Positions 1-24,000 of a stretch of DNA of 24,000 bases are shown piece after piece; the stretch's first letter is position 1, and each line of letters starts with the position of its first letter. The DNA comes from Marinobacter litoralis. Its GTDB lineage: Bacteria > Pseudomonadota > Gammaproteobacteria > Pseudomonadales > Oleiphilaceae. The notes beneath the pieces were generated by a model. That model was given only the letters and a program-made list of their open reading frames with translations. It searched no databases and was not told where the DNA came from. The position numbers and the translations under genes are program-made. Location of the stretch: NCBI RefSeq assembly GCF_016427555.1, contig NZ_JAELVS010000003.1, positions 64,550-88,549 on the forward strand, written 5' to 3'.

Positions 1-1
1 C

Positions 2-1100: not shown

Positions 1101-1144
1101 CCCTCTAAAAATCTTGATATTTTGGCCGTTTGAGGATCAATTTG

Positions 1145-1381: not shown

Positions 1382-1411
1382 CACAGAAACAAACAGCCCG
1401 CAAACGGGCCG
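1382..1411 (-). terminator. rho-independent terminator downstream of the ADP-ribosylglycohydrolase gene
   Basis: Minus strand reads CGGCCCG-TTTG-CGGGCTG (7-bp stem with one G-U pair) followed by TTTGTTTCTGTG. It lies about 37 nt after the stop codon at 1448-1450. Confidence 0.6.
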
Positions 1412-1447
1412 TCAGGAGCTGAGAGATAAACGCAACATAACCCTGAC

Positions 1448-2554
1448 TCATCCTCCCGGATACCGAGCCCAGAGCCTGTCATCGCCCATGTAAGAATGCC
1501 ACTCTCGACACGTCCACAAATCGGAAGCAACAGCCTCAATCACCGGCCGTAGCTCAAGCTCCGCCAGCCACCGATCTGGGATAGCACGCAGCCCAAGATG
1601 TGCGCCAAGAATATTCCCGGTAATCGCTCCCGTGGAATCTGAGTCGCCATCGTGATTGACCGCCAGCACGATACCCTGCTCGAAGCTATCCGCCACCAAA
1701 GCGCAGTACACGGAAATGGCCAAAGCTTCCTCCGCCACCCAGCCTTCGCCTAGTTCTCGAATAGCCTCATGGTGAGGTTGGGCGGATTGACTGAGTGTGT
1801 CAGCGTGTTCTAGCGCCGCCGCGGTTTCTTCGTGACCTGGTTCAGCCACTAGCAACGGCTTGGCGTTATCCAGCGCCTCTGACAACGACTTACCCGCCAG
1901 CAACTCGAAAATGACAACCGCCAATACGCCACCGGTCAAATAGCCACTGGGGTGACCGTGAGTAATTGCGGCCGCCATGCAGCCGTCGTCGAAAACACGT
2001 TTCAACGGGTTATCGCCAAGGAGGTCCTTGAAGGACCACCAGAACAGTCCAACCGGTGCCACGCGCATCACGCCGCCGCAACCTTTACTGTCGTTGGCCG
2101 CAATACCGGGTTCGCCGCTGTAATGCCGCAGCGCGCTCAAACACGTACTTCCCGGGGCCCGCTGGTTGTGAAGTTCATCTTGTTGAAACAACCAGCCGCT
2201 CTTGTCCACGGTGACTTCGTAGCACTCCTGCCCCTGAGTGGCGAGCCAACGCAAATAAGCATTCGCCACCGTATGATCGAAGCTACTTAACCCACGGCTG
2301 ACACCTCGCATCTGCCCTCTCAGCAACCCCTCAGCCGTGAACAGCGTCATCTGGGTATCATCGGTGATCTTACCTTTCCCACCGTAGGCTTCCGCGTAAT
2401 CGGTAATGCCCTCCGGCCCGAAACGGTTCAGTATCGCGGTTCGTGACATGAATTCGACCGCTCCGCCCAGGGCATCGCCGATGGCGCCGCCTAAAAGGCA
2501 AGCGGTAAATAAATCCACTGGACCAGAGTTAAGTTCGGAACGAGTTGCTTCCAT
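1448..2554 (-). CDS. ADP-ribosylglycohydrolase family protein (DraG/ARH-like), 368 aa
   Basis: Family signatures are LLGGAIGDALGGAVEF, TDDTQMTLFTAEGLL and NHDGDSDSTGAITGNILGA (metal-binding Asp clusters). The start is set at ATG 2552-2554, with GGAGG at 2564-2568 and a 9-nt spacer. The longer 417-aa ORF only adds translation of a microsatellite. Confidence 0.85.
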   Translation of the reverse strand: MEATRSELNSGPVDLFTACLLGGAIGDALGGAVEFMSRTAILNRFGPEGITDYAEAYGGKGKITDDTQMTLFTAEGLLRGQMRGVSRGLSSFDHTVANAYLRWLATQGQECYEVTVDKSGWLFQQDELHNQRAPGSTCLSALRHYSGEPGIAANDSKGCGGVMRVAPVGLFWWSFKDLLGDNPLKRVFDDGCMAAAITHGHPSGYLTGGVLAVVIFELLAGKSLSEALDNAKPLLVAEPGHEETAAALEHADTLSQSAQPHHEAIRELGEGWVAEEALAISVYCALVADSFEQGIVLAVNHDGDSDSTGAITGNILGAHLGLRAIPDRWLAELELRPVIEAVASDLWTCREWHSYMGDDRLWARYPGG

Positions 2555-2581
2555 GGCGTTCGACCTCCAGAGGTGAGCGTG

Positions 2582-2636
2582 GGCTTGGCTTGGCTTGGCT
2601 TGGCTTGGCTTGGCTTGGCTTGGCTTGGCTTGGCTT
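2582..2636. repeat. perfect pentanucleotide microsatellite (GGCTT)x11 (AAGCC on the gene strand)
   Basis: There are 55 nt of uninterrupted GGCTT units, read directly. The tract starts 27 nt upstream of the ARH start codon. Confidence 0.97.
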
Positions 2637-2659
2637 GGTACAAATTCTTTGAATGACAT

Positions 2660-2697
2660 AAGACAGGAAACGCCTGGGCCCATTTCATGAGGCCCAG
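2660..2697 (-). terminator. probable terminator of the outer-membrane protein gene
   Basis: Perfect 7-bp inverted repeat CTGGGCC (2674-2680) / GGCCCAG (2691-2697) with a 10-nt loop. On the minus strand it is followed by GCGTTTCCTGTCTT. It begins 19 nt after the stop at 2716-2718. Confidence 0.45.
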
Positions 2698-2715
2698 ACA
2701 CAAAACAACGATCTG

Positions 2716-3318
2716 TTAGAAACGGAACTCAGGCCCTACGCTAAAGACGTTGACATCGGTTTCGCCGGTTTCATCTTCATCACCGACGTTAACGAGATAA
2801 TCCCAGTCAGCACGTAGGCGTACCGAGTCAGAGACATCAAAGCTAACGCCAAGCCCCGTTCGGAATGCAACACCCGTATCGCTATCGCTCTCAGAAACCG
2901 TCATAAAGCCGTTACTTGCCGTCGCTTCATAATTTAGGCGCCACAACAGCAGACCCGCCTTGGTAAATACCTTAAACGGCCCTGCTTCCGGCATTCCTAG
3001 CTGGAACGTTGTATCAACGAAGTGTCCATTAACCGCACCAGCAACAGCCACGCCCCGAAACATTCCGGATACCTCTACGTCATCGATATAACGATAGCCA
3101 AACTCAAGATTTGCAAAACCGTTTAACTCCGTTCCTCCGTATACACGTAGAGAGAGCGCACTGTCGTCGCAGGAAGTTTCCGACCCATCACAGAAATCGT
3201 CTACGGTAGCCTGCCCTAACGACACACCTACATACCCTGCCTGCGGTTCAGCGGCTTGCGCTGAAGTGTGAGCCAGAACAGCAATGGACAACGCCAACAC
3301 AAATTTATTGAACTTCAT
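2716..3318 (-). CDS. small outer-membrane beta-barrel protein (OmpA-N/OmpW-like porin-fold family), 200 aa
   Basis: Signal peptide MKFNKFVLALSIAVLAHTSAQA with an A-x-A cleavage site. The body alternates aromatic and hydrophilic residues in beta-strand patterns. The C-terminus ends in the OMP signature ...GPEFRF. AAGGA RBS lies 8 nt upstream of the ATG. Confidence 0.8.
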   Translation of the reverse strand: MKFNKFVLALSIAVLAHTSAQAAEPQAGYVGVSLGQATVDDFCDGSETSCDDSALSLRVYGGTELNGFANLEFGYRYIDDVEVSGMFRGVAVAGAVNGHFVDTTFQLGMPEAGPFKVFTKAGLLLWRLNYEATASNGFMTVSESDSDTGVAFRTGLGVSFDVSDSVRLRADWDYLVNVGDEDETGETDVNVFSVGPEFRF

Positions 3319-3525
3319 TTCAACATCCTTTTAGTCACAACAAACAACTGCCACTCACCCAAGTGAACGAGTCATCTAATTTGTTCTATGCGAACCGTTT
3401 GAATTAATTGTTTACGATTTTCGGCATGACAGGGCCATCATGCTTTGGAGGTGCGACAGTTAGAGTCGCTATAACTTCGAAGCACCGAAATCTAACCACA
3501 CTGATTCTATAATGCGACCAATGGC

Positions 3526-3849
3526 TCATTTTCCCTGAAGGTCGTGCAACTTCTTTTTAAGTTCTAAACCGCGCTCATTCAGGCTGAAAATCGTTACTCG
3601 GTAGTCGTTTGGATCTGGCCGAGTACAGGCAACATCGATACCAGACTTACCTGGACGAGCCCGGTCAGTGAGATTCCTCATATTTCGAGAAGTACGGCTT
3701 TTACCTAACTTAAAACGGGCCTCGACTTGGCTCACGGTAGCTTCATCGTTATCACAAAGATGCAAAAAGCAGAGGATGGTGCCTAGAGGTATGTCCTCTT
3801 CATACTCCCTGAAAAGAGAAATTGCATTGACTAACGTATTACAGTTCAT
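3526..3849 (-). CDS. MarR-like winged-helix transcriptional regulator, 107 aa
   Basis: wHTH pattern ATVSQVEARFKLGKSRTSRNMRNLTDRA... followed by the wing DPNDYRVTIFSLNERGLEL, which resembles the MarR D-x-R...LT..G wing. AGGA RBS precedes the ATG. Confidence 0.6.
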   Translation of the reverse strand: MNCNTLVNAISLFREYEEDIPLGTILCFLHLCDNDEATVSQVEARFKLGKSRTSRNMRNLTDRARPGKSGIDVACTRPDPNDYRVTIFSLNERGLELKKKLHDLQGK

Positions 3850-4141
3850 TTTTTCCTAACAAATGAAACACGAATCATCAACATCCGTTCCCGAAACCGC
3901 TTTCCAATCCGTTAAAGCGATACAGTCAACCGGCTAAGCACCAACAAAGCCGGTAAACGCCCGGTCATGATCCTCCAGAAACGTCGACGAATCTATTTCA
4001 AAAGCTAATAATGTGAAACCCAACTCGTTGTTATTGCGATCATTTTAAAAGTAACGATAATGTTTTTTAGTACACCTAATAGGACCCTTAGAAGGGTCTT
4101 GCTTATCACTGACCCGCTTTTCAGTCAGAAAAACTCAAACA

Positions 4142-10192: not shown

Positions 10193-13100
10193 CTAAGTAC
10201 TTGCTACAACGTAATCGAACCATTCCCCGAGCAAAGCCTTCTCCTCATCCTGAAAGTCCCCTGCCGGAAAATTCAACTGTGCTTCAGGTGAAGCATTCCT
10301 GCTGAGCCGGAAATTCACAAACGGAAATCGGTTATTAAGCCTTAGCAACTTTAGCAGTTGATCCTTCCCTTTGAACGCACCGACGACATTCTCCGACAGG
10401 GCATCAATTGTGTCGCTTGAAAGCGGACTTAAGAGCTGTTCAATAGGGCCAGACATAGTTTGGAAACTCAACCAAGTCTGAGGCGCGCGACTGGCCGTTC
10501 TCTCGCGAGGCAAAGCTACTGGTAGTGGTCTCGGCCCAGACACATTTTTGGCATTAATCTCGTCAATGGTGAGGTCCTGGATGCCATGGAAAAGTCTGGC
10601 CTCTAGCTCGTCAGAAAACTTCTTAATGCTCTCGAGACCCATTCGAAATTCCTCTAAAGACAGCCACTGCATCGTCCCTCGCCGAACAAACAGAGGAAAA
10701 TTGACGCGGGTGCTGAGGTAGAAATGACTGTTACCCGAGTCCTCGTCGACCGCCACGCGAACTAATGGGTACGATTGGCTCAGTTCATCAATCAATGTTT
10801 TCAACTCAGTGAGGGCTATCTTTTCAAAATTCTCGCGATTAGCAATTGGCGACGCAAAACTCACTATGTAGGCTGTCTCAGGACTCAAAGCCGAAAACCG
10901 AGGTGAAAAACCAAGCGTTGCGAATATAGGCTGGTGCCGCCGGGATTGCCCTCGCTCAATGCGTGGATCAATGATGAACAAAAGCTTTGGTGATGTCTGG
11001 CTCGACCGAGCTTCGATGATTTTGTCGTTCAGCGGATCACAAGCACTTTCGAGATGCGCTCGGATGGTCTCTGCGATATCGGAAAAAGTATGGGTATCCT
11101 GCGGCTGGTAGCAGGAATCTAATGTTTCAGGCCGATCAAATCTTGCCGGATAAGGATCGACCACCTCTTCCTCAGAATGATCAATTGGTGTTCTGAAAAG
11201 CTGCCCCCAATCCTTGTTTGCGGTCGGACGATATTCAGAATCAAATTTCGTCTGTAGGCAGGCATCCATTCGTTCTTCCACCTGATGTTTTCGCTCAATG
11301 AAAGAAGCCACTTGATCCTCATCCACGGAACCCTCTAGGTAGGGGTAATGGATACCCAGATCGCCTTTGCCAGATTCCAGCCGTTTATTGACGCACCCGA
11401 ACAAACGGTCAATCCGCCCTACCCTCTGTTCGTTATCCCCCGGTGATCCCGCTATTCCATAGTGGTGCACCTGATGACAATTCATGTGCAGATTCACCCC
11501 TTCCTGGAATACCGAGGTAGAAACCAGAACGTTGGGGTAAAAGGGGCTGTTAAAACCCAGTATCAGGCGTTGGCGGGCGCTGTTATTTTCACCACTGGCG
11601 TACCAGGCTGGACTGGTCAAACCTTTTAAGCTTCGCCATTCCTTACGCCAATCTCCGACACCATGGTCAACAATTTTGTCGCAAAGTGCTTCGAAGGTTT
11701 CCAGGGCCGCGACAAAGTAGCGGAGTAACAAAGAGCCTTTGATTTTTTCCTGCCGAACGAAATCATAGAATCCTCGGTACCACTCCTGCACATTGGCAAT
11801 CCTTCCTTTGCGGCGATACTCTGCAAACCAGCTATACAACTCCACGATCACTGGGCTCGCATGTAAAAATCCGGCTCGAATATAGTTCCCGAAGTTTTCC
11901 GCAACGGGCTTACTTGTGTTTGCCCATCTAAGCATTTGCTCCTGAAGCTTGCCAGGAAGTTCATTGAAAACCAGTTTCCATACTGTAAACAGCTCCTGAG
12001 TGTAGGCTGTTTGCGGTGCTTCAGTTTTGCCCACGGCTTCTCGCAAATCGGCAGCACTGTTCCAACGGGAAAACCGTTCATAACGAGCAGCCACACCGTA
12101 GTTGGCCCGCGTACGCTCTGAATCCCCATAAAAGTAGCTGTATCCGCCTTTGAGGTAATCACTGGACGGCTCAAGAAACAGCGAGAACAGACTTTCATGT
12201 TTGGTAAAACGCCGCCGCACATTTACACAATCGGTCTGGCCACCAGCTGCGCCTTCCTTAACAACAAACAGCTGAGCAACCCTTGATGCCAGATAATCCT
12301 CTTCCATGCCGTCAGCGTCTTCGTCATCCGCATCTACTTCCGCGCTTTCATCCTGAACGTCACCCGTTCTTACGCTTTCTAAAAGCTGTTCAAATTCGTT
12401 GCGGGAAAAGCTTTTAAGCCTTGGCTGTCCGTGAGAGTCAAATGAGGACAAGCCCAATCCGGAAAGCAGCATTTCACCTAACATTTGGTCGTAACGCTCA
12501 TTTAAGCGCTGGGTTAATTCTCTGACCGAAGGAATGCGACGAACAAAAATCAGATGTTTAAGGTTGCTGAGTGGCAACTGGTATAAATCCGCCTTTTTAG
12601 GAACACACGCCTCAATCAACCGACCGTATTTTGGGTGCCCGGGAAATCGATCGAATGCCTTATAGAAACTGTCGGTAAGCCCCATGAGCAGATTGGTATC
12701 CGGAGCCGTCGAGTAATCGGTCTTGCCTTTATCACCATCAGACGTATCCCGGTCAGGATCCTGCCGCGAGGCCTCGTCTGTTATGAGATCTCGGCCAACG
12801 GACTCAAACCCTTCCAGATACCCGTACATCAGACTTTTGTTTTCATTTTTCTTGTTTAGTTCAGCTACCAGGCCTTTCTGGTAAAGGGCAAAAAAGCCTT
12901 CTGCCTCGGGTTTTCCATCAAATGTCGCCGGCATAGGCTTTTCATGTCGGTAATGCCGTTTACTGAAGAGCTTTCCATTGGCCTCCATAAGCCGCATCCG
13001 TCGCAGTCCATAGTTATTGAGCAGGTAACTGGCGCGATCAGCTTCACTTGTCCATCCGTCCCCGGAATCCAAGAAGTAACTGAAAATGCTGTTTACATCC

Positions 13101-13849
13101 GAAAGACGGGTATGACTGGGCGTTGCTGTCAGCAATAAAGCTCTTTGTGAGAGTGGATCGTGCTTGGTACCAAAAAACGCCCCGGCTGCAGCAACCCGCT
13201 GAGAGCCGCCGTGAATATTCCTAAGGTAATGGGCCTCGTCAACGATGATCAAGTCGAAGCCCTCAGGACCAAGAGCACTTTTGATGCTCTCGTGAATCTC
13301 TTGTGCTCTTTCTCCGGCGACTATGTCAGGGCTACGACCATCAGTGTCTTCGCCCCGTAGCAAGCCACTCAATGAATGAATCGTGGTGAGATAAAAATGG
13401 GAAACGCCCTGGCTCACTGCGGCATCTAGATCAGCTAATGACTTACAGATTTCTATGCTGGGAACGACACCTCCATCAACACTGTTCTTAACGGTGTGGT
13501 CGACAACCCGGTAGTGGGAACTCACCAAGTTGTTAAATTCCCGGCGCCAGTGCAGGCATAAATCCCTGTTGGGTGCCATCACCAAAACTCGGGCATCAGG
13601 TTTCCTCTTCCATAACAGCGCTGCAACCCCCAGCGCCTGGAAGGTCTTGCCCATACCTACTTCATCCGCCAGCAGAGCCACTTTCTGTTCCGCTAACACA
13701 TTCCATAAGTAGGCGACCCCTTCGGTCTGTTTAGCAGGCATAGATTGGCGGTCGTGCGCACTATAGCGCCAGTCTTTCTGGCCACGATTGAAGTTGATCC
13801 ACTCCGAGACCATGTCGGGACTTAACAGCCCCCAATCGGATACGCTCAT
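10193..13849 (-). CDS. SNF2-family (superfamily-2) helicase/translocase, 1218 aa
   Basis: Motif I is LLADEVGMGKTFQALG (nt 13643-13666), and Ia is LVMAPN. Motif II is IIVDEAHYLRN (DEAH at 13229-13240), and III is LLLTATPSHTR. Motif V is STSVFQEGVNLH, and VI is NEQRVGRIDRLFG. The ATG overlaps the PLD gene stop (ATGA). The last ~400 aa carry no recognisable motif. Confidence 0.9.
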   Translation of the reverse strand: MSVSDWGLLSPDMVSEWINFNRGQKDWRYSAHDRQSMPAKQTEGVAYLWNVLAEQKVALLADEVGMGKTFQALGVAALLWKRKPDARVLVMAPNRDLCLHWRREFNNLVSSHYRVVDHTVKNSVDGGVVPSIEICKSLADLDAAVSQGVSHFYLTTIHSLSGLLRGEDTDGRSPDIVAGERAQEIHESIKSALGPEGFDLIIVDEAHYLRNIHGGSQRVAAAGAFFGTKHDPLSQRALLLTATPSHTRLSDVNSIFSYFLDSGDGWTSEADRASYLLNNYGLRRMRLMEANGKLFSKRHYRHEKPMPATFDGKPEAEGFFALYQKGLVAELNKKNENKSLMYGYLEGFESVGRDLITDEASRQDPDRDTSDGDKGKTDYSTAPDTNLLMGLTDSFYKAFDRFPGHPKYGRLIEACVPKKADLYQLPLSNLKHLIFVRRIPSVRELTQRLNERYDQMLGEMLLSGLGLSSFDSHGQPRLKSFSRNEFEQLLESVRTGDVQDESAEVDADDEDADGMEEDYLASRVAQLFVVKEGAAGGQTDCVNVRRRFTKHESLFSLFLEPSSDYLKGGYSYFYGDSERTRANYGVAARYERFSRWNSAADLREAVGKTEAPQTAYTQELFTVWKLVFNELPGKLQEQMLRWANTSKPVAENFGNYIRAGFLHASPVIVELYSWFAEYRRKGRIANVQEWYRGFYDFVRQEKIKGSLLLRYFVAALETFEALCDKIVDHGVGDWRKEWRSLKGLTSPAWYASGENNSARQRLILGFNSPFYPNVLVSTSVFQEGVNLHMNCHQVHHYGIAGSPGDNEQRVGRIDRLFGCVNKRLESGKGDLGIHYPYLEGSVDEDQVASFIERKHQVEERMDACLQTKFDSEYRPTANKDWGQLFRTPIDHSEEEVVDPYPARFDRPETLDSCYQPQDTHTFSDIAETIRAHLESACDPLNDKIIEARSSQTSPKLLFIIDPRIERGQSRRHQPIFATLGFSPRFSALSPETAYIVSFASPIANRENFEKIALTELKTLIDELSQSYPLVRVAVDEDSGNSHFYLSTRVNFPLFVRRGTMQWLSLEEFRMGLESIKKFSDELEARLFHGIQDLTIDEINAKNVSGPRPLPVALPRERTASRAPQTWLSFQTMSGPIEQLLSPLSSDTIDALSENVVGAFKGKDQLLKLLRLNNRFPFVNFRLSRNASPEAQLNFPAGDFQDEEKALLGEWFDYVVAST

Positions 13850-15798
13850 TTTCCTTCCCTGTTAGAGCTACGGCGAAAGTATTCGTCGGTTAACCATGCG
13901 CGGTATTCTTCACTGACCGATGCCGGCAGCGCCGGTTCCGCAACAATCAAAGCTTCCCATCTTTGGAATGTTTTCTCAGATCCAGCACCGACTAACTCTG
14001 CCTGCTTTGAACGGGCCGTACTGCATAGCTGATTAACCTCCTGGGTAAGAAACCAGTTAAACAGAGTAGGCGCAGAGCTACTCTCAATGCGGTGCACCGT
14101 TTTTTCTACCAGCTCTTGGAGACACCCAGGACGAATGAACGCCCAATACTCCAGTTCTTTCTGATCCCGGCAACCAGCCAACAGCTCCTCATAGTGATGG
14201 CAAGCAGAGAACAGCCGAAAATAACTGATGTCAGCCGATTGATGTTCATGTTCGGAGACCACAGCGGCATCGTCTGAGACCAGAGCGTCAACCAACGCCC
14301 GCCCATCATCGTCCTCCTCGACGCGGTAGGCAGCAGCATCGGTAGGAGGTTCACCGCCGGATAGCACCAACGCATCCAGCAAGCCTCGTAGATCCTCATA
14401 CTGTTGAGCTCTTCGGAAGATCGGACGTGTTTCAATAATCAAACCTTTTGCGATCGCAACATCACCGCTGAGTACCTCATAATTGCGGTCTACTAAAAGC
14501 GGTTTCGTGGATGCTACCGGCAACTCCAGTTTCTGTAGTACGAAAACATCACCGTGAGAATCAACCACCCATTGAAGCTTCACTGAATGGGAAAGTCCGG
14601 GAAGTTCTAGCTCAAACTCACAATCAGGCTCCGACGTACCAACCCACACTCCCGAAATGTAAAAACGCTCGATTTGCCAGTCAAACACCACGCGCAGATC
14701 AAAAGGCGGGGGCTCCGGGACTCGAAGACTTTCCTGCTCCATTTGGTCTGGTGTCGCAAATAAAGCTTCAGACAACGGCAACACCTCACCCACATACTCC
14801 GCCAAAGGAGACTCATCAACGATAAGCAAACCTGCTTCTACGTTATGGATGGGATAGCCACCGTCTGGTATCAAATTGCTCCCAGGCTGAGTGAAATTCC
14901 AGGATCCAATCGCTAATCGATCCGGTGTTTTCCAAAGCTTTGCATGGGTCATAAAGCTTCGGTGATCACGTTTGGAGGGGCTCTGGTGCAAAGAGAGCAG
15001 CCCTTGCTCGTGCAACTTGGCCAAGCCCTGGTTCCATTCAGCGCGTAAATACTGATTCTCTACCCTGTCTGGTACCAGCTGAACCCGAAGGTCAGGAGCT
15101 ACTGCAAAACGCTGTAAGTTCCTCACGTACTTACTGATATCTCTTGAAAAATAAGGGGACCAAACGGCAAGTTCACTTGGTTTGCTATCAAAAAGACGAT
15201 TAAGAAAGGGTATCCCTGCCAGACTATGACAGAAGCTCACCCCCGGATCCTCCGTCTGACCCGGGATGGAAAAATCTTCAGGGAATCGTTCTTGAACGTT
15301 GGTAAACACTGGCTGAAAGAAACTTCTAACGGATTCCGCCATGCTCCGACTTGCCACCGGAACAAAGGAGAACAGCTCCTGATTTCTGCCCCAGCCATCC
15401 ACGGTCAGGTTTGCGCTCCCGGAACCAAGAGCAGAACCTTTGTCGCCCTGAAGATAGATAACCTTTGCGTGGAACAGACTGTGCTCAGAGAAAGAAATGT
15501 CTCCATTGGATGACAATCTTTCCGGTGAAACGCCATGAATTGGAATTGCGGTTCGTTTATTCTGATCTGGCTCGATGAATCGCTTGTCACAGAACACTCG
15601 AATATCGATACCCCGCTCGCTCAGTACCTGCTGCATCCCCTCATAGTCCATTCTAAGCTTTGGGGGATCCATCCCTAGAATGGTCGGTAAAAGGTAGGTT
15701 TCGATAAATTCGATGTTGATGACGAAACTGGTGAGCCAAACCCGCTGAAGCGTGCCTACTTCGTCAATCTGTTTTCGGAAAGTCGAGAGCAATTTCAA
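13846..15798 (-). CDS. phospholipase-D-family nuclease with two HKD motifs, 650 aa
   Basis: HKD 1 is HAKVIYLQGDKGSALGSGSANLT (nt 15403-15471). HKD 2 is HAKLWKTPDRLAIGSWNFT (nt 14890-14946). The TTG start (15796-15798) overlaps the upstream TGA (TTGA) and follows GGGGGTGA. The C-terminal ~300 aa are unassigned. Confidence 0.85.
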   Translation of the reverse strand: MKLLSTFRKQIDEVGTLQRVWLTSFVINIEFIETYLLPTILGMDPPKLRMDYEGMQQVLSERGIDIRVFCDKRFIEPDQNKRTAIPIHGVSPERLSSNGDISFSEHSLFHAKVIYLQGDKGSALGSGSANLTVDGWGRNQELFSFVPVASRSMAESVRSFFQPVFTNVQERFPEDFSIPGQTEDPGVSFCHSLAGIPFLNRLFDSKPSELAVWSPYFSRDISKYVRNLQRFAVAPDLRVQLVPDRVENQYLRAEWNQGLAKLHEQGLLSLHQSPSKRDHRSFMTHAKLWKTPDRLAIGSWNFTQPGSNLIPDGGYPIHNVEAGLLIVDESPLAEYVGEVLPLSEALFATPDQMEQESLRVPEPPPFDLRVVFDWQIERFYISGVWVGTSEPDCEFELELPGLSHSVKLQWVVDSHGDVFVLQKLELPVASTKPLLVDRNYEVLSGDVAIAKGLIIETRPIFRRAQQYEDLRGLLDALVLSGGEPPTDAAAYRVEEDDDGRALVDALVSDDAAVVSEHEHQSADISYFRLFSACHHYEELLAGCRDQKELEYWAFIRPGCLQELVEKTVHRIESSSAPTLFNWFLTQEVNQLCSTARSKQAELVGAGSEKTFQRWEALIVAEPALPASVSEEYRAWLTDEYFRRSSNREGK

Positions 15799-17240
15799 TG
15801 ATCACCCCCGTAGTAGCCGCTGACCAGGAAATTAAACTGATGCAAATAGTAAGAATTCACCCAAGAACCAGGTGGGCGGTCACCTGCAACCGGTAACGAT
15901 GCCGTTCGGCCATGGTTATGAACTTCCCCGCTCCGCGCCAGCTCGACCCAGCGTAATTGGCCCCGCTGCTTCATGACGGTCGCATGGTAATCCAGTAAAG
16001 CGACAAGCTGTTCTTCTACGGTATTCAAGCGGGCAATTTGAAGTATTTTTTCCAAACGCTTTCGGCCTGTTTCTTGAAGAGGAACCCGAATTTCAGGGTG
16101 GTCAACGATTGTCTCAGCGTAACTTTGTAGCGTGGTTTCGGAACGACCGAGCCGCTGCCAGTGATCCCGAATTTCTGCCACGGCCTGAACCTTCTTGTGT
16201 CGGGCAACTCGAAAGAGCAAATCTACTTCAGCAAGCAAAGGTTCAATACGCTGGATGTTCTGAAGTTTCTGGCGTTCAGCGGTTTCACCATCAAAGGTCT
16301 TAACCGCCTCTTCAACAATGGACTGAGGGTTCAGTTTCTCCGGTGCAACATCATTGGCTTTGAACTGACTGAGCTTTTTTTTCATAACATTTAGAAGTTC
16401 ACCAGCAGATCCCTCGTTCAGTCCCGTCGCTGAAAGCCAGAAGTCCCGTGTTTCCGAGCCGACCTTGGCACCAGTAATGAAAGCCGTGCGGTAAGCGTTC
16501 TTTAGAACTGGCGAAATCTCCAGGAAATTAATCCTGGGAGGCACTTGGGACTTGGCCTGCGCTGAGTGAACAAGATTTACCAAGTGCCTTCTGACCTCTG
16601 TGAAGCAATAACGCAGTGAATCACTACTTGATAGCAGCTTCTCAAACTCAGCCCAGCGCTCTTGAGCCGTAGGATCAATATAGCGGTAGTTCTGATCGAA
16701 GAACCCTATCTCTACAAACGGTGTTTTGTAACGACCGCTCACTCCCAAGCCCAGCTGGCGAACTAACAATTGGCCTGAAGGTTTATCCGTAAAAATCAGC
16801 TGGTGATCCCCTTTGCTCTCCTGCTCTTCCAAAACGGCGCGACCTTTACTACCACCCAAGATACCGAGCGTATCGATACCCGCGTCCTCTGGTCGATGAA
16901 CCATTGAGTAGGTAAAGATATTCTCCAGATGTATCAGGCAGGCATGAATAAATGGCAGGCTATCTTTCGGCCCCAGCTCATTGGCAAGTGCATCGGACAC
17001 CTGAACTTCTTCATCGAGAAGTATCGAGCGAATCACACCATGATGCAGCAAGTTGAGCGTAAAATTTCGGACATCATTTGAGACGGAGTTTACGCGGTTT
17101 CGGAAGACCTGTTGGCCATAAGCCGACCAGATAACCAGCTGGCCGAGCGGGTCGATAAACGAATCACCAGACAAGGAGTCATCGTATTCGGTAAGCATAT
17201 CCTTAAGCTTCATAAGACAGTCCAATCCTTGGAGAAACAA
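15795..17240 (-). CDS. hypothetical protein, no family recognised (up to 481 aa)
   Basis: Long ORF with coding-like composition, flanked without gaps by the GIY-YIG gene (stop 17241-17243) and the PLD gene (4-nt overlap). The start is uncertain. TTG 17238-17240 abuts the upstream stop; ATG 17211-17213 is the alternative. Confidence 0.6.
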   Translation of the reverse strand: MFLQGLDCLMKLKDMLTEYDDSLSGDSFIDPLGQLVIWSAYGQQVFRNRVNSVSNDVRNFTLNLLHHGVIRSILLDEEVQVSDALANELGPKDSLPFIHACLIHLENIFTYSMVHRPEDAGIDTLGILGGSKGRAVLEEQESKGDHQLIFTDKPSGQLLVRQLGLGVSGRYKTPFVEIGFFDQNYRYIDPTAQERWAEFEKLLSSSDSLRYCFTEVRRHLVNLVHSAQAKSQVPPRINFLEISPVLKNAYRTAFITGAKVGSETRDFWLSATGLNEGSAGELLNVMKKKLSQFKANDVAPEKLNPQSIVEEAVKTFDGETAERQKLQNIQRIEPLLAEVDLLFRVARHKKVQAVAEIRDHWQRLGRSETTLQSYAETIVDHPEIRVPLQETGRKRLEKILQIARLNTVEEQLVALLDYHATVMKQRGQLRWVELARSGEVHNHGRTASLPVAGDRPPGSWVNSYYLHQFNFLVSGYYGGDH

Positions 17241-18155
17241 TCACGTTAAAGCTTCCGGCTCCAGCTTCTCAGCCTCCCAAGCCTTATACGTTTTCCCTTC
17301 CGGTAATCGCCATTCAGTGGTGCCATTGGTTGGACGGCCATTCACCACTGCCGCTGCAGCACTTGGGCTTTTAAACGCGTAGTTCTCGGTAAACACAGCA
17401 AGCTCTCCCTCTGGGCGTATGACACCCGCTGCCACCAGCTCACCATGCAGCTTACTGTAGCCAGTGTGGTGAGTGCTCTTACCTCGCCATCTGGGACTGA
17501 CTTTGGAGCCCGTGAGAACCACAAATTCCCCATCCGTGAGCACAGCTTTGGCCTCGATAGCATGCTTGGGGGTTCGAAGTTCAAACACTGTATCCGGCTC
17601 ATCTGGGTCAGCAGAGGAAACTGAACCTGTTTTTGCCTGCGGTCGAGTCTGAGCAAGAAAACTGTCGATACGTATGGCGGGCAGCACCATCATAAGGTAC
17701 TCAAGAAAGCTCTCCATATTGGCCTGCGCAGCCTCACTCAGCGAGGAGCGCGGGGGTGTATTGCCATTGTCTAGTCGGATTTTGCCAGCCCGTCGAGCCT
17801 CTTCAACCAGCCTGGATTCCAGATACTTTGCATGTGCCTTATTAAGGTTATTCCCGGCAGTCGTTATAAGAACCGCAGTGGTCCACCAATCCTTGGACGT
17901 GTCATGGCTTTTAATCCGCCCGCCGATATCCTCACCCTCCCCGATGTAAGCCAACGGACCGTCATCATCTTCGCCAAACAACAAATATACGCCAGTGTAG
18001 CTGGCTTCCGGCCTCTTCAAGGCGGCTCCCAGGCGCGTGCGCGGAGCCATGAGCACATGACCCGTCCAGTTAAACACCTCGGCTGTCAGCATGCCGTCGG
18101 GTTTTCCATCGATGAAGAATAGTTCGAGAGACTGCCCTTTATTGTTAATCATCAT
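17241..18155 (-). CDS. GIY-YIG nuclease family protein with C-terminal DUF4357-like domain, 304 aa
   Basis: GIY-YIG core is GVYLLFGEDDDGPLAYIGEGEDIGGRIKSH followed by AKYLESRLV. The C-terminal FVVLTGSKVS...FTENYAFKSPSAAAAVVNGRPTNGTTEWR matches the DUF4357 pattern, which occurs in restriction-modification (R-M) and defence neighbourhoods. Confidence 0.8.
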   Translation of the reverse strand: MMINNKGQSLELFFIDGKPDGMLTAEVFNWTGHVLMAPRTRLGAALKRPEASYTGVYLLFGEDDDGPLAYIGEGEDIGGRIKSHDTSKDWWTTAVLITTAGNNLNKAHAKYLESRLVEEARRAGKIRLDNGNTPPRSSLSEAAQANMESFLEYLMMVLPAIRIDSFLAQTRPQAKTGSVSSADPDEPDTVFELRTPKHAIEAKAVLTDGEFVVLTGSKVSPRWRGKSTHHTGYSKLHGELVAAGVIRPEGELAVFTENYAFKSPSAAAAVVNGRPTNGTTEWRLPEGKTYKAWEAEKLEPEALT

Positions 18156-18197: not shown

Positions 18198-20039
18198 CTA
18201 CCTTCGGGTTTGAAACGCAAAGCTCCGCCGCCCAACCACTCGAAAATCTCGTGAGCCAGCAAGTTTCTGCTCGTACTCCACACCAGCTCCGTTCACTCGA
18301 AGGTACCGCTTTGTCTTGCAAGACTTACAATCTGTCGCAAAGCTACTGGGTTCTTGATGAACCAGCTTTACTGGACTTGAGCAAACCGGACATCGCTCAA
18401 GTACCATGATTTCCTGTTGTCTTCTGCCCAACTCCCTCACTTGAGAAGCTGCATTGTCATCGACAAGTGACCGCTCAACCCGTGAAAGATCACCCTCGCT
18501 CAGACCCTCTACAAGTCTAATTTCATGTCGTTTCGATTCTACTGCCAGGCCTTTAATTTCTCGCGCGATTCTTAGTGAATTGGCTGGGACTTTTAAGATC
18601 GGGCAACCGTATCCAGCCACCAGCTCCCTCTGTAAAAGCTGATCGATCAGATAACCAAATCTTTCGACGCTATACAGGTCGAACGGCGATAGCTGAATCC
18701 ATATGCCATCGATGGGAACTTCACTGGAATACAAGTGTTCGTCCGTCAATTTTGGCCAAGCCACTACTCTAGACAAAGGGTGATCGAAATTCTGCTCCGC
18801 AGAAAGTTCGTTTGGACGTTCGCCCAACTCCAACCAAGGAACAACTTCCAAGAGAATTTTTTCTGTTCTGCTTGAGTCATCGGGAGATAAAATCAACTGC
18901 CAGTCGAGCCCTACCTGTCTCAGCTCAAGATTCAGCCCGGCCCAACGCGATGAAAACTCAGTTCTGAGATAAGGTGCCAAAGCATGACGAAGAACCAGAC
19001 CGGCGTATCTCGAATACGTTAGGTTCAGCGCTTCGTTTCGCGCGCATCGTTCCTCAGGCGTCGTCTGTTTACCGCCAACGACACTCCGTAACTCATTCCA
19101 AAGGACAGGTAAATGGCGGTAATGCTGATCATGGCTCAGGATATTCGTAAGATGCAGTCCGTCTCCGATATTTACGCCGCGGTTCACCAACAGGTACAAA
19201 CCTCTCTGCTTGAGACCTCGAACTATACCAAGCGCATTCTCTAGCTGTTCCAGCGTTTCGGCTAGCTGTTCGGACGCTTTATTGGTTGAATCCTGAGTAA
19301 AGGCTTTTCCCCAAAGCCTGCATATTTCGTCAGTCAGGCGATGATGAAGCTCATTAGTTCCGTAAAACTCCAACGCCTCATTAACGGCAGACTGGATCTG
19401 CTTTAGCGTGCCGACTCGTTTGCACAAATATTGCTCGATTTTGTCAAGCAACCTTGCGTACACACGATTTTCATAGATATTAAAGTCGTCCTCGCTAAAC
19501 CGGGCTTTCACTCTCTTGGGTATAACACCGGACAAGGTCTGGCGCTGCCAGCACTCAGAATGCGAGGCCAGATGCACCAAGGCTCCTTTAGCTAACTTCT
19601 TGGCCCTCGCGACATCCGTGACCTCTTCTTCGTAGTGCAGGTCCAACCTAGGTCTCATCGATATTTGATGAAGGTGCCCCGCTCCGATGGTCTCGATCAG
19701 TTTCAAATCAAATGAGTTTAGGTGACTATCTTCGTTAACCACACCCTCAGGCATTAATGGTGATGCCAGCCCATTTCCACTCTCGATGCTTGAATCTATC
19801 GTATCCAGGATGCGCTCGAATAAATCGGCTTTCTGGACGATTGCCTTATCCGGCAACCTAAAGGATTTTCGCTCGCCATCGACATTGGCAATTTCGCTCC
19901 CATCGTCAACCAAGAGACCGCTCGTTCCCACACCTAAAGATTTTGGATGTCCAGCCGTTGCCTCAGCTAAATAACGGCCGGACTCGACAACGTCAGGTAA
20001 ACGCTCGATAGCCTTCCCAGTCAGCCGATCCACCCACAT
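18198..20039 (-). CDS. McrC-like (DUF2357-type) partner protein with C-terminal zinc ribbon, 613 aa
   Basis: The ATG overlaps the McrB-like gene stop (TAATG). DFNIYENRVYARLL resembles the conserved ENR segment of McrC/DUF2357 proteins. A PD-(D/E)xK-like stretch SPDDSSRTEKILLEVVPW follows. The tail has CPVC-x17-CKSC. The assignment rests on position plus weak motifs. Confidence 0.55.
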   Translation of the reverse strand: MWVDRLTGKAIERLPDVVESGRYLAEATAGHPKSLGVGTSGLLVDDGSEIANVDGERKSFRLPDKAIVQKADLFERILDTIDSSIESGNGLASPLMPEGVVNEDSHLNSFDLKLIETIGAGHLHQISMRPRLDLHYEEEVTDVARAKKLAKGALVHLASHSECWQRQTLSGVIPKRVKARFSEDDFNIYENRVYARLLDKIEQYLCKRVGTLKQIQSAVNEALEFYGTNELHHRLTDEICRLWGKAFTQDSTNKASEQLAETLEQLENALGIVRGLKQRGLYLLVNRGVNIGDGLHLTNILSHDQHYRHLPVLWNELRSVVGGKQTTPEERCARNEALNLTYSRYAGLVLRHALAPYLRTEFSSRWAGLNLELRQVGLDWQLILSPDDSSRTEKILLEVVPWLELGERPNELSAEQNFDHPLSRVVAWPKLTDEHLYSSEVPIDGIWIQLSPFDLYSVERFGYLIDQLLQRELVAGYGCPILKVPANSLRIAREIKGLAVESKRHEIRLVEGLSEGDLSRVERSLVDDNAASQVRELGRRQQEIMVLERCPVCSSPVKLVHQEPSSFATDCKSCKTKRYLRVNGAGVEYEQKLAGSRDFRVVGRRSFAFQTRR

Positions 20040-22498
20040 TAAAACCCGCCCTCTTTCCTTTTGATGTCTTTCTCCAAAAGATCAAGTGAGGTCACTGGAA
20101 GACTATCCAGGCCCGTTCCGCTCCAGAACGCTTCCAATGAAGACATCAATTTTCGAACGGAATCCGCGCTTACATCGAAGCGACCTGTTACCTTACCCTG
20201 GCGCATTATTCTGCTCGCTAGCAGGTGATCCAGAGCCTCACCCCTGGTCGCCCCTGATGACATCATCACGGGGATAAACCTGAGCGCCTGCTTCTCAAAG
20301 CGGTTGCCCCACCCCAGACCAAAGTCAGTCTCAAGCTGTTTTGTAAAGTCGTTTTCGGTTAATTTACCTAGCAAATCTTTCACAGAGGCGGTGTGCTCCC
20401 CGCAGGCAGAATCGAAGGCTTTCTGAAGAGAACTGAATGAATAGCTCGCAGGTGGATATTCCTTGATACGGAAACTGTGATCCTGCTTCGGAAGTGTCAT
20501 CACATGTGACCGATCATAAGTCTTATCAGCTAGCTCATTAGTCGTCTCGTCATGATTTGCCGTGCCGATAAACCAAACGTTGTTCGGCACAAGAATCTGG
20601 CGCCCATCCCTCAGCATATTTGGTGCCCCGGGCAACTCTGTTTCAGAAAGGCTGATTAGTCGCTCGGCCGGATTATTTTTTTCAAGAGCGGACAAGAATT
20701 CTGCGAAATATTGCTCTGGTCGAGAGAGGTTCATCTCATCAAGCAAGATCACATTACAAGAGTCTTGCCAGCGAGGGGCCTGTGCCTTGTATAGAGCTTG
20801 CAAGCAGTCCTTCTCGTAGAAACGGCGCTCAAAGGCGTTGAAATGACCCAGCAAATCATCGCGATCTCTCCAGCCTGCCTGCACGGCTATGTCCTGACAG
20901 AACCCTCCCATGGCCTTAGCAAAGGCCTTCGCAAGGCTCGTTTTACCCGTGCCACTAATTCCTTGGAACACGTGTAACTGACTCATAGCCAAACCACCGA
21001 GAAGCAGCCTGATATCCTCAATCGGATAGAATAGCTCCACATTCTTTTCAGCTCGGGCAATACGGTGCTGAAGTTCTTCTGCAAAGGACTTCAAATCTGG
21101 CACATGCTCAAGTTCGATGCTGGCCTGGAAGGCTTTATCAGTGTCCATGATCGACATCGCAGGGAACGCTGTTTTGGCCTTTTGCGCATTGGTCAATTGA
21201 TCAATACGAGTTTCAAGATCATCAATGTGGACCGCTAACGTATTTTTGTGAGATTCGAGAACCCGCTTCTCCCGGGCAATGGCTTCAAGCTCCGTAGCAG
21301 CTACACGCTTCACGCTCAACTCTCGACGCGCTTCGTCAAGTTCCGGGCGCAGAGCGGCAATGTCTCGCTCCAAGTCTGAGACTTTATCCCGTAGATATTG
21401 ATTGTCTTGCTGCAACCCAGCGGTGTCTGAAGATTCCAGCTGTCTTTTCAGCTCGCGATTTTCAGCAGTCAATCTCTCTAAATTCTCAAGTATTTCTGCC
21501 GGAGAGCGCTCGCCCAGTGCAGTACCCAACTCCTGGAGGTCATGTAACCGTTCTTGTAGCGTCTGAACCTTTTCCCAAGCCTTCTCTCTCTGTGCAGATA
21601 CCTTCGCCAACTCGAGCGCAAACCCCTTTCGCTCAGCTTCCATTCCCTCAGCTATGCGATTTTCTAGCTCAGCTTGCTCTGTTTTGAGTTCTGACCAATC
21701 GCGGTCCAGCCTTGTTCTATCGCGACTTAGCTTTGCCTTTTCCTGGCTGAGCTCATGCTCTCTCGCATCAAGCGCGTCAATTCGCTGAGCTTCTGCGTCA
21801 GAACAGCTATGCCTGATTTCTGCCAGCTTTCGTGCAGCCTGCTTTATTTCCTCTCCAAGCGCGGTCTTCTGATCCTGTAGATCCTTCAGATCTGATTCTC
21901 GCTGCACAATCAGCTGACGCTGTTGCTCTTCCAGTTGCCGCAGTGCTTTCTCATTCTCCTCTGCAAATCCTGCCTCAGCATTCGCCTCTCTCTGCTTAAG
22001 CAATCGTTCGAGGCTCAAAAGATCATTTTTCTTGGTTGCTAACTCCTGCTCCAGCTCGTCTATGCCGGCAACTCGTTGCTCCAAGGCCTCACGGTCTGCC
22101 TCAACCCGCTCAGCTTCGAGTTGCAGCCGTTTGTGTTCGGCATTGTTTTCTTCACCAAGCTTGCTGGCCTTCTCCCAACGTTGGATATATTCCTCGTTGA
22201 GCTTCTCCTGGTATTTGCTGAGCTCCTTACACACCTCTGCAAATCGCTCAATCCATCTCGCTATTGAGGCAGTGTCCTCAGTCTTCTGAAGCGCATCCAG
22301 GACCCGACCGATCAATTCTTTGTCGACGTCAATATCTAGGTTTGAACCAGTGGCTTGATAGACCTTTGATGCATTCTCAAACGAGGCTGCCCATATCGGA
22401 CCATGCTTTTCGAGTGACGCAGCCTGACGAGAAGGTGCAGCGGGAGCTCCTGTTGCCACCGGGGAGGCATTGCGTTTGTTTCCATTCTTCTTGGCCAT
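20039..22498 (-). CDS. McrB-like AAA+ (AAA_5/COG1401) NTPase with long N-terminal coiled coil, 819 aa
   Basis: Residues ~95-450 are E/K/R/L/Q-rich with almost no Pro or Gly, as expected for a coiled coil. P-loop is FQGISGTGKTSLAKAF (nt 20936-20962). Walker B is VILLDEMNLSRPEQYFAEFLSALE. FIGTANHDETTNELADKTYDRSHV sits at the McrB signature position. TAATG overlaps occur at both ends of the gene. Confidence 0.85.
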   Translation of the reverse strand: MAKKNGNKRNASPVATGAPAAPSRQAASLEKHGPIWAASFENASKVYQATGSNLDIDVDKELIGRVLDALQKTEDTASIARWIERFAEVCKELSKYQEKLNEEYIQRWEKASKLGEENNAEHKRLQLEAERVEADREALEQRVAGIDELEQELATKKNDLLSLERLLKQREANAEAGFAEENEKALRQLEEQQRQLIVQRESDLKDLQDQKTALGEEIKQAARKLAEIRHSCSDAEAQRIDALDAREHELSQEKAKLSRDRTRLDRDWSELKTEQAELENRIAEGMEAERKGFALELAKVSAQREKAWEKVQTLQERLHDLQELGTALGERSPAEILENLERLTAENRELKRQLESSDTAGLQQDNQYLRDKVSDLERDIAALRPELDEARRELSVKRVAATELEAIAREKRVLESHKNTLAVHIDDLETRIDQLTNAQKAKTAFPAMSIMDTDKAFQASIELEHVPDLKSFAEELQHRIARAEKNVELFYPIEDIRLLLGGLAMSQLHVFQGISGTGKTSLAKAFAKAMGGFCQDIAVQAGWRDRDDLLGHFNAFERRFYEKDCLQALYKAQAPRWQDSCNVILLDEMNLSRPEQYFAEFLSALEKNNPAERLISLSETELPGAPNMLRDGRQILVPNNVWFIGTANHDETTNELADKTYDRSHVMTLPKQDHSFRIKEYPPASYSFSSLQKAFDSACGEHTASVKDLLGKLTENDFTKQLETDFGLGWGNRFEKQALRFIPVMMSSGATRGEALDHLLASRIMRQGKVTGRFDVSADSVRKLMSSLEAFWSGTGLDSLPVTSLDLLEKDIKRKEGGF

Positions 22499-23988
22499 TA
22501 CATCCAGTCCTTAAAGCATTCCGTGAAATTCTTTGCATACGTCATCTGTTCTATCACCAGGTCCTGAGTAATCTCTTTCGACCTCCGTTTATTGAAACGA
22601 CTCTGTCCATGGCTACTCTGATTCCGAAGGTCAGCCAGATCTAACAACTGCATTAGCTGTAAGTCCGAATCTTGCAAAACCTTTAGCGGGTGCTGATCGT
22701 CGTTGAGTGCCCCCATTCCCGCGGCAAACAGTAAGGCTTTGAGAGAGCTTGATGGGTTGCGACACGATTTGATGACGTCATCTAAGCGCTGCCTCGCTAA
22801 TATTCGAATGACATCTTCGGTGAAAGATGGAATACCCAATGCGCCAAGCAACCCTTCATTCAGACTCCAGTTCGATTTCTTCGCGGATGGTATCTGCCCC
22901 ACATTCGCAGGGTAGGTCTTGATCAACCATTGCATAACCACTTCGAGAAGCTTCTGACAGTCACCGAGAGCAGCCTCCAAATCAGAATCCCAAGTCAGTC
23001 CCGATTCGATTCTGCGTCGCCACTTCAATATTCGGGCGAAATACCGCTTGATGTCGGGCTGAGCCTCTACCCAGGGGTACTCGATCAAAATATCCAGCTC
23101 CGTTCTCTTTTGAAGCTCTCTCAACCACTCTTCATTAGTCAGTGCCCCTGCGTCTGGAATACCAATCAGCGGCGCGAGAAAATTCCGAAGCTTAGTGTCT
23201 GAGTCCAGCAACTGCCTCACAGGCTCTTCGAGCCACCAGGCGCCTTCCCTGAGCCCAAACGGATCCCTTACTGACCAGAGCTCGTCCCCCTCATCATCAC
23301 CCGTTATCCAAACCACAATTCTCGCGGCCTCCGGTGAATCGTCCAGACGCTGAATGCCCTGCAATCGCACAGAATCAGATGACGAATGCAAGCCGTCCAT
23401 TTGCTGGCTGGCCCGAAAATCTTTCCGATAGTCACGGTAGGCCCGAGCGAGCCCCTCGTTATCTAAAGCAGGCAGGTTTTGCTTTTTTGATCTGGCGAGA
23501 TAGGGCCGGAAGGTGTGACCTGTCCGTCTCTCAACAGAAAACTCCGGAAACCTGGCTTGCGGATCCAGAGGCTCTATTTGTTCGAGCCTTGTTACCATTC
23601 GTGGCCAGAAATCACCGCTTATCGCGTCCTGAATCAGGAAGCCAGCCTTGAGATTCGACGACTCATCTTCCTCAGCGTCCAGCAGCTTGTGTCCTTCATC
23701 CGTCAGAGCATCCGCCCCCGTGGTCAACCAACCATGACTAATCCCTTGCGCAATAATCAGGGCGATCAATTCCGGGTGTAGACCAGTCAGAGCGGCAATA
23801 TCATCCTGTCTGGTGCATTTGGCCCTGATCAGTCCCAAAACCGCTCGCTGAAACAAATTCAACTCGGGCTGCCTTGGTTCAGGATAGAGAACTCGATGAA
23901 CAAGGACCGGCCAAAGAATCGCTTTCGATTTTGACCTGGGCCGATCGCTGAATTTGAGATAGCTGCCAGTTTCAACGAACGCTGCCAT
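22498..23988 (-). CDS. hypothetical protein with N-terminal wHTH-like segment and C-terminal R-x4-H (HEPN-like) motif, 496 aa
   Basis: ATG 23986-23988 is preceded by GGAGG plus a 5-nt spacer; the ORF-track GTG at 24000 is less likely. LNLFQRAVLGLIRAKCTRQDDIAALTGLHPELIALIIAQGISHGWL is wHTH-like. DLRNQSSHG (R-N-Q-S-S-H at nt 22609-22626) lies 42 aa from the C-terminus. Confidence 0.65.
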   Translation of the reverse strand: MAAFVETGSYLKFSDRPRSKSKAILWPVLVHRVLYPEPRQPELNLFQRAVLGLIRAKCTRQDDIAALTGLHPELIALIIAQGISHGWLTTGADALTDEGHKLLDAEEDESSNLKAGFLIQDAISGDFWPRMVTRLEQIEPLDPQARFPEFSVERRTGHTFRPYLARSKKQNLPALDNEGLARAYRDYRKDFRASQQMDGLHSSSDSVRLQGIQRLDDSPEAARIVVWITGDDEGDELWSVRDPFGLREGAWWLEEPVRQLLDSDTKLRNFLAPLIGIPDAGALTNEEWLRELQKRTELDILIEYPWVEAQPDIKRYFARILKWRRRIESGLTWDSDLEAALGDCQKLLEVVMQWLIKTYPANVGQIPSAKKSNWSLNEGLLGALGIPSFTEDVIRILARQRLDDVIKSCRNPSSSLKALLFAAGMGALNDDQHPLKVLQDSDLQLMQLLDLADLRNQSSHGQSRFNKRRSKEITQDLVIEQMTYAKNFTECFKDWM

Positions 23989-24000
23989 GGTCACCTCCAC

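Follow-up and report, generated by a model that had tools for sequence, protein, structure and literature searches.

A three-gene helicase and PLD nuclease module of Marinobacter litoralis matches the phage defence candidate PDC-M27 and shares the layout of Azaca

Azaca (Millman et al. 2022) is made of ZacA, a DUF6361 protein, ZacB, a phospholipase D (PLD) nuclease, and ZacC, a helicase of superfamily 2 (SF2). All three proteins, together with the Walker A motif of ZacC, are needed for the cleavage of T4 DNA in vitro, and the system studied experimentally, BmAzaca, is from a Bacillus (bioRxiv 10.1101/2025.07.10.664194). Other candidate systems have been predicted from their genomic context: PADLOC includes 145 predicted single- or multi-gene cassettes named PDC, for "phage defence candidate", which were identified by "guilt-by-embedding" (Payne et al., bioRxiv 10.1101/2024.01.29.577857), i.e., by having at least one copy that lies within a BREX, DISARM or type I restriction-modification (RM) locus (bioRxiv 10.1101/2024.01.29.577857). 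Table S8 of that work lists the cassette CAS_00110, with three protein families and a count of 127, under "Assign as candidate PDC-M27" (bioRxiv 10.1101/2024.01.29.577857). Here, we analyse three adjacent genes of Marinobacter litoralis, called A, B and C and together the triad, in a stretch of 24,000 nucleotides (contig NZ_JAELVS010000003.1, positions 64,550 to 88,549; hereafter the window). We consider it probable that the triad is an intact and self-contained three-gene PDC-M27 module encoding an ATP-driven helicase-PLD nuclease complex that would cut phage DNA and in which A would be an accessory or specificity subunit.

The triad and the candidate PDC-M27

Each protein of the triad matches one PDC-M27 model end to end: A matches PDC-M27A (E = 7e-169; residues 10-479 of the 481 amino acid (aa) open reading frame (ORF) on model positions 1-458 of 460), B matches PDC-M27B (E = 2.3e-215; residues 1-640 on positions 1-631 of 635), and C matches PDC-M27C (E = 0, 1664 bits; residues 1-1216 on positions 1-1214 of 1217). 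The genes are adjacent and co-directional, in the cassette order A>>B>>C of PDC-M27. Because the hidden Markov model (HMM) E-values range from 7e-169 to 0 and the gene order is kept in about 40 genomes, the three-gene observation is real and far beyond chance. These full-length matches identify the triad as an intact PDC-M27 copy, the same entity as the candidate of PADLOC-DB v2.0.0, and no structural difference from it is seen in the window. It has the long-helicase form (model PDLC04554, 1217 positions), whereas the commoner form has a short helicase of about 900 aa.

A first reading of the locus, made from the sequence only, had proposed either an Azaca-like system or an undescribed one, and had named full-length hits of all three genes to a single known system as evidence that would speak against it. 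The Azaca-like architecture stands, but the locus is not undescribed: the PADLOC search returned PDC-M27A, PDC-M27B and PDC-M27C at full length, even if this name is a candidate label only. We regard the triad as an instance of a catalogued candidate and not as a new kind of system. None of the three proteins has a model in NCBIfam, and in papers on PLD and SNF2 defence systems we found nothing matching the triad.

The three ORFs (15795-17240, 13846-15798 and 10193-13849) are all on the minus strand, within a long run of minus-strand genes (Table 1). Both of the 4-nt overlaps reported earlier, TTGA between A and B and ATGA between B and C, are present, and the three genes appear to be translationally coupled, as had been deduced from them: among the 40 intact loci that we tabulated, the 4-nt A/B overlap is the same in 34 and the B/C spacing ranges from -14 to +14 nt. 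The 481 aa given previously for the first protein correspond to a genuine ORF, the longest possible reading, which begins at TTG 17240 immediately after the stop of the upstream gene, but a length of 472 aa is likelier. Since the alignment with the PDC-M27A model begins at residue 10 of this ORF and the identical database protein of Marinobacter litoralis has 472 aa, the start is most likely ATG 17213. A scan for promoters and terminators gave fewer sites than in shuffled sequence, so that transcription units are not definable in this way. A megablast search of the triad against complete Escherichia coli genomes gave no match.

Table 1. Positions of the genes, motifs and neighbouring features discussed in the text (window coordinates).
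Feature	Position	Strand	Remarks
Gene A (PDC-M27A), 472 aa	15795..17213	-	maximal ORF to TTG 17240, 481 aa
Gene B (PDC-M27B), 650 aa	13846..15798	-	full-length PADLOC match; Pfam PLDc_2; tandem PLD domains, residues ~1-340
Gene C (PDC-M27C), 1218 aa, predicted SNF2-like SF2 ATPase	10193..13849	-	PADLOC, Pfam
TTGA, overlap of A stop and B TTG start	15795..15798	-	read 15798-15795
ATGA, overlap of B stop and C start	13846..13849	-	read 13849-13846; GGAAGGA upstream, Shine-Dalgarno-like
A, N-terminal block, most conserved	17028..17153	-	residues 21-62; DPLG..W..G...F......S.SNDVRN.T.NL..H.; invariant columns, 35-sequence alignment
A, second invariant motif LGVSGRYKTP	16719..16748	-	residues 156-165; 35-sequence alignment; low-confidence loop of the model
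B, first HKD motif HAKVIYLQGDKGSALGSGSANL	15406..15471	-	H110, K112, GSAN 127-130
B, second HKD motif HAKLWKTPDRLAIGSWNFT	14890..14946	-	H285, K287, GSWN 298-301
C, helicase motif I (Walker A) DEVGMGKT	13643..13666	-	conserved in homologues
C, helicase motif II DEAH	13229..13240	-	conserved in homologues
C, helicase motifs V-VI block	11399..11557	-	residues 765-817; only stretch clearly common to C and Azaca ZacC
C, C-terminal extension	10193..11134	-	residues 906-1218; no assigned domain
PDC-S14 candidate, 304 aa, directly upstream of A	17241-18155	-	PADLOC 6e-119; C-terminal DUF4357
PDC-S40 candidate, 206 aa	9553-10173	-	PADLOC 1e-81; weak Imm6 resemblance; starts 19 nt after the helicase stop
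McrBC-like set, three genes	18198-24000	-	domain matches
Tyrosine integrase, apparently split, overlapping ORFs of 325 aa and 103 aa	8166-9444	+	strand opposite to the defence genes
UvrD/helicase IV-like protein, 975 aa	4142-7069	-	NCBIfam helicase IV, 518.6 bits vs cut-off 543
Tus (Ter-binding) protein, C-terminal piece	80-415	+	
ADP-ribosylglycohydrolase	1448-2701	-	
OmpA-like beta-barrel protein	2716-3318	-	

The motor, the nuclease and the first protein

With motifs I-VI present and Pfam domains above their cut-offs (SNF2-rel_dom, 52.2 bits vs 24.9; ResIII, 56.3 vs 22.5; Helicase_C, 29.5 vs 23.5), protein C is classified as an SNF2-like SF2 ATPase. The alignment of C comprises 43 sequences, i.e., that of the window and 42 homologues, and in these the motifs I (DEVGMGKT), II (DEAH), III (TATP), IV, V (TSVFQEGVNLH) and VI (EQRVGRIDR) are at least 95% conserved, which agrees with the earlier statement that the helicase has all the SNF2 motifs. 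The two RecA lobes are separated by very large inserts, and motifs III and V are more than 500 residues apart. The last Pfam domain of C ends at residue 815, and the roughly 400 unassigned C-terminal residues that had been pointed out are indeed there. They consist of two parts: residues 816-905 are conserved across the family, whereas residues 906-1218 form an extension that only 10 of the 43 sequences have. This extension diverges faster than the core (identity of 26-53% vs 48-72%), and a homologue search with it returned one protein only. When C was compared with the sequences of solved structures, there was a single marginal match, to a DEAD/DEAH helicase.

We assign protein B to the PLD (HKD) nuclease superfamily, on the basis of two HxK...GSxN motifs on a predicted tandem PLD fold. 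The motifs are H110-A-K112...G127-S-A-N130 and H285-A-K287...G298-S-W-N301, and their H, K and GSxN residues are at least 95% conserved in 47 homologues and invariant in an independent 37-sequence alignment. They had been described as HxK-x4-D...GSxN; the HxK and GSxN parts are correct for both motifs, but the Asp is not at x4: it is found at x6 (first motif) and x5 (second motif) and is not a conserved residue of the family. Pfam PLDc_2 matches B with 39 bits (cut-off 27). In the AlphaFold2 (AF2) model (pLDDT, the predicted score in the local distance difference test, of 84.6; predicted template modelling (pTM) score of 0.82), a single-chain tandem PLD fold takes up about the first 400 residues, and there are further domains that are beta-rich (residues ~366-457) and helical (~526-645). 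The best matches of this model among solved structures in Foldseek are the PLD3/PLD4 5' exonucleases and Tdp1 (probability of 1.00), then the restriction enzymes BfiI, SauUSI and NgoAVII; as modelled, the fold thus resembles most closely enzymes acting on nucleic acids. A phmmer search of B against the sequences of solved structures gave no match.

Protein A is soluble, has no transmembrane segment, and its predicted fold is all-alpha (AF2 pLDDT of 85.9, pTM of 0.82). That the first protein lacks a known domain, as claimed before, is upheld: it has no match in Pfam (DUF6361 included), in NCBIfam or among PADLOC models other than PDC-M27A; Foldseek matched its predicted fold to nothing in PDB or BFVD at E < 0.8; and in a profile search of the sequences of solved structures, the best E-value was 0.42. 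With 610 clusters at 50% identity (E <= 1e-3), the family is moderate in size. A has strongly conserved polar motifs, including SxSNDVRN and LGVSGRYKTP. The weak Foldseek matches of A are transporters, and a membrane role was considered and rejected, A having no hydrophobic segment.

Conservation and neighbourhoods of the module

With one genome taken per species, a pattern scan gave 52 loci with a homologue of A in alpha-, beta- and gammaproteobacteria. In about 40 of these 52 genomes, A is followed by B and C in the same order and on the same strand, so the survey of the neighbourhoods of A homologues that had been suggested with the first reading finds the triad syntenic elsewhere. All 35 homologues of A that we checked also match PDC-M27A. 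The exceptions to the A-B-C order are contig ends and three disrupted loci: in one, a Tn3-family transposase was inserted after A, in place of B and C (L009:11474-14488); in another, the homologue of A stretches over 2.3 kb, as though some 900 bp had been inserted into it (L051:10001-12293); and in the third, a truncated A (residues 1-170) is directly followed by a homologue of PDC-S40, which looks like a deletion of the rest of A plus B and C (L047:1913-3128). Among the PDC-M27 loci fetched, the sole non-proteobacterial match to A is fragmentary (residues 1-220, 52% identity) and comes from a 1278-bp contig labelled Streptomyces hayashii (L046). It may be a contamination and not a true actinobacterial copy.

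The window's own neighbours of the triad (PDC-S14, a McrBC-like pair and PDC-S40) are essentially not conserved at the other loci, and therefore the module consists of three genes. We scanned 125 flanking proteins from 36 loci and found type I RM subunits, WYL/WCX regulators, LeoA/BC, a MADS component, SIR2, integrases and transposases; ShosA was found in a separate scan of one flank. The module is directly upstream of hsdR in one locus (L042) and follows hsdR-hsdS-...-hsdM in another (L025). WYL proteins account for 6 of the 125 flanking proteins, and four of them also have a WCX domain (BrxR/CapW-type). In one locus, the WYL gene is directly upstream of A and on the same strand (L008:9005-9982), which is a hint of regulated expression.

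In the window, the triad is surrounded by other putative defence genes (Table 1). The stop of the PDC-S14 gene abuts the maximal ORF of A. In another Marinobacter (L001), the homologue of PDC-S14 is 88% identical and that of A only 64% identical, which suggests a mosaic exchange of neighbouring defence genes. The McrBC-like set appears to resemble the coiled-coil McrBC variants, CoCoNuTs. It includes an 819-aa protein, with a long SMC-like coiled coil followed by AAA_5 (McrB-type) and a partial match to PDC-M26A, a 613-aa protein with a weak match to DUF2357 (McrC N-terminal), and, upstream, a protein that the end of the window truncates (more than 500 aa) and that has a wHTH-PRTase_assc domain. 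The GC content is 54-58% at the left end of the window (profile of positions 1-4000) and 45-50% further in; the region of the triad has 45-52%. Together with the split integrase, this drop fits a horizontally acquired island, and the left end of the window appears to be ordinary chromosome. The 975-aa UvrD-like protein has C-terminal zinc ribbons of the topoisomerase type and strong partial matches to GajB, with no GajA adjoining it. The window has no tRNA genes and no Rfam matches.

These surroundings also bear on whether the module serves in defence. It could be a helicase-nuclease of repair or recombination, or a set for the maintenance of, or competition between, mobile elements: SNF2 ATPases and PLD/Tdp1-like enzymes act in repair too (as illustrated by the Foldseek matches of B to Tdp1), integrases and transposases often adjoin the module, and PDC-M27 is only a predicted defence candidate. 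We find such a role quite unlikely, given the patchy distribution of the module, its variable neighbourhoods and its low-GC islands, its insertion in or beside type I RM operons in some loci, and the other PADLOC candidates and the McrBC-like pair that flank it in the window. Moreover, it is rare on plasmids (3 of 72,556 records) and a scan of viral contigs for A found none, which is not what one expects of a typical mobile-element maintenance set.

Proposed function and comparison with described systems

By analogy with Azaca and from the anatomy of the three proteins, we infer that A, B and C would assemble into one complex, in which the SNF2-like ATPase C would bind double-stranded DNA and translocate on it with ATP, and would deliver or license the single-chain two-HKD nuclease B. 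The latter would then cut the invading DNA via a phosphohistidine intermediate. Because the module is without a methyltransferase, self and non-self would have to be told apart by some property of the invader, for instance modified bases, replication intermediates or a phage protein. Three parts of the module are candidates for reading it: protein A, the C-terminal domains of B, which are non-catalytic, and the extension of C, which evolves fast.

Several observations weigh against this proposal. A has neither a recognisable domain nor a structural relative, and therefore the role given to it, like that of a candidate specificity or sensor subunit in the first reading, is a guess. In Azaca, mutating conserved residues of ZacA had no effect on cleavage in vitro (bioRxiv 10.1101/2025.07.10.664194), and therefore the analogous first subunit may not be catalytic. 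Clear defence loci make up only some of the 36 neighbourhoods that we scanned. In the searchable literature, we found no experiment on PDC-M27 and no paper text that names it, nor is it among the PDCs assayed in two studies of other PDCs. Other PADLOC candidates have a mixed record, with four of eight active in one study and none of two in another. The tight coupling of the genes, the intact modules in about 40 of the 52 genomes and the intact catalytic sites nonetheless make PDC-M27 a reasonable candidate for experiments.

The lack of a methyltransferase or of any other self-marking gene in the module is equally what one would expect of a toxic or abortive-infection module, in which the sensing of infection would lead the nuclease to degrade the DNA of both host and phage, and not to restrict selectively. 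There is a precedent in helicase-nuclease systems such as Hachiman, which reportedly degrade all DNA once triggered, and the WYL/WCX regulators upstream in several loci suggest a tight control of expression. We nevertheless judge this mode unlikely: Azaca, the closest functional analogue, prefers T4 DNA in vitro (bioRxiv 10.1101/2025.07.10.664194), and the module has no small antitoxin-like gene, although nothing in the sequence separates an abortive mode from a restriction mode.

DISARM, like the proposed helicase-nuclease complex, pairs a PLD-family nuclease (DrmC) with an SNF2-like ATPase (DrmD), and the HMMs of these two give weak local matches to B and C, respectively. One could thus see the triad as a reduced or partial DISARM, i.e., DrmC and DrmD with an accessory gene. 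This is effectively refuted. The score of C against the NCBIfam model of DrmD is 73.3 bits (cut-off 610) and that of B against DrmC (DrmC_I) is 30.4 bits (cut-off 133). The DrmC models have 153-256 positions and a single PLD domain, whereas B has 650 aa and two HKD motifs. DrmA, DrmB and a methylase had been reported absent, and rightly so: no ORF of the window that we tested matches DrmB (DUF1998) or a methyltransferase, and the sole match to DrmA is weak and local, on C (E = 1.6e-11). Finally, the module keeps its three-gene structure, with variable flanks, in about 40 loci. We therefore rejected DISARM.

The ATP-dependent type IV restriction enzymes of the SauUSI type have a PLD nuclease, an SF2 helicase and a target-recognition domain in one chain. 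PDC-M27 resembles them in that a PLD nuclease would be coupled to an SF2 motor driven by ATP and that a cognate methylase is lacking, and the PLD fold of B matches that of SauUSI (Foldseek E = 1.3e-4). It differs in that the functions are divided among three proteins, and a Pfam scan detected no DUF3427 or SRA-like recognition domain in the triad. PDC-M27 might, hypothetically, depend on the modification of DNA. If active, it would be one more restriction-like system that detects invaders but leaves self unmarked.

The comparison with Azaca is the closest. As a reference, we used six Azaca loci that were obtained by querying plasmids with the motif V-VI block of the helicase in tblastn and were identified by their annotation with the Prokaryotic Genome Annotation Pipeline (PGAP) as a DUF6361 protein, a PLD protein and a helicase. 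The one on Cronobacter pESA3 was confirmed with the PADLOC models, all at full length (ZacA, 8e-142; ZacB, 1e-188; ZacC, 0). These six loci span Proteobacteria, Bacteroidota and one haloarchaeon, whereas the PDC-M27 loci that we fetched are all proteobacterial except the Streptomyces fragment. Among the Azaca operons, one separates hsdS from hsdR in a type I RM locus carried by a Haliscomenobacter plasmid (Bacteroidota; L055:1060-11193), and the haloarchaeon Halomarina has another, also on a plasmid (L061:1749-8043).

The two systems are alike in their layout. Both have three overlapping genes in the same order, i.e., an uncharacterised protein, a PLD protein and a large helicase, and of similar sizes (407/605/1053 aa in Azaca of Cronobacter pESA3 vs 472/650/~900-1218 aa in PDC-M27). 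ZacB has, like B, two HxK motifs (near residues 111 and 304), then a tail of about 280 residues; in both proteins this tail has roughly 300 aa. In both C and ZacC, some 550 residues separate motifs III and V. Neither system has a methyltransferase, and both are sometimes embedded in or beside type I RM loci.

The sequences are much less alike. For the first subunit, we found no homology: the hhalign probability of A against six DUF6361 proteins is 0.2%, neither A nor its 35 homologues match the Pfam DUF6361 or PADLOC ZacA models even at E = 10, and 10 distant relatives of A have no DUF6361 match in Pfam at E <= 0.1. For the nuclease, the similarity between B and ZacB is confined to 36 columns around one HKD motif in hhalign (probability of 65%) and to 55 residues of the ZacB model (E = 6.5e-7), and it is not significant in BLASTP. 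The helicases are closer. C and ZacC align in hhalign with a probability of 98.5% (E = 2.5e-15, 44% identity), an alignment carried by the 63 columns of motifs V-VI, and BLASTP aligns the V-VI block with 47% identity, along with motifs I and II-III. They have in common the block FNSPF.P.VL..TS..QEG...H...EQR.GR, but their motif II differs (DEFQ in ZacC, DEAH in C). The best non-self PADLOC match of C is ZacC (84 bits, confined to residues 765-831) and that of ZacC is PDC-M27C (69 bits), a reciprocal match that outscores DrmD, DpdE and BrxH; for comparison, ZacC of Cronobacter pESA3 scores 1186 bits against the ZacC model.

We rejected membership in Azaca by sequence because the triad does not match the ZacA, ZacB and ZacC models at full length and the tests fail above all for the first subunit. 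The triad is best described, from these alignments, as built on the plan of Azaca, with a motor distantly akin to ZacC, and not as a sequence member of Azaca. The shared order, overlaps, sizes and motif spacing, the reciprocal helicase matches and the common association with type I RM loci could also be taken to mean that the triad belongs to Azaca as a highly diverged subtype, with a common ancestor, a homologue of ZacA that diverged beyond detection and the same mechanism. We hold this descent to be rather doubtful, because there is no trace of similarity between the first subunits, the alignments of the other two proteins cover only one HKD motif and the helicase motifs, the motif II sequences differ, and PADLOC keeps Azaca and PDC-M27 as two separate entries.

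The reading of the triad as a helicase-nuclease defence module can be taken one step further, tentatively, to the possibility that PDC-M27 is a working anti-phage machine on the design of Azaca with a different first subunit, where A and the extension of C would decide which DNA is attacked. If this is true, restriction by tripartite PLD-helicase systems would be a broader class with interchangeable specificity subunits. In architecture, PDC-M27 is a twin of Azaca. Its helicase is the closest PADLOC relative of ZacC, while its first subunit is unrelated in sequence to DUF6361. The comparison between PDC-M27 and Azaca could thus reveal what this enigmatic first subunit does.

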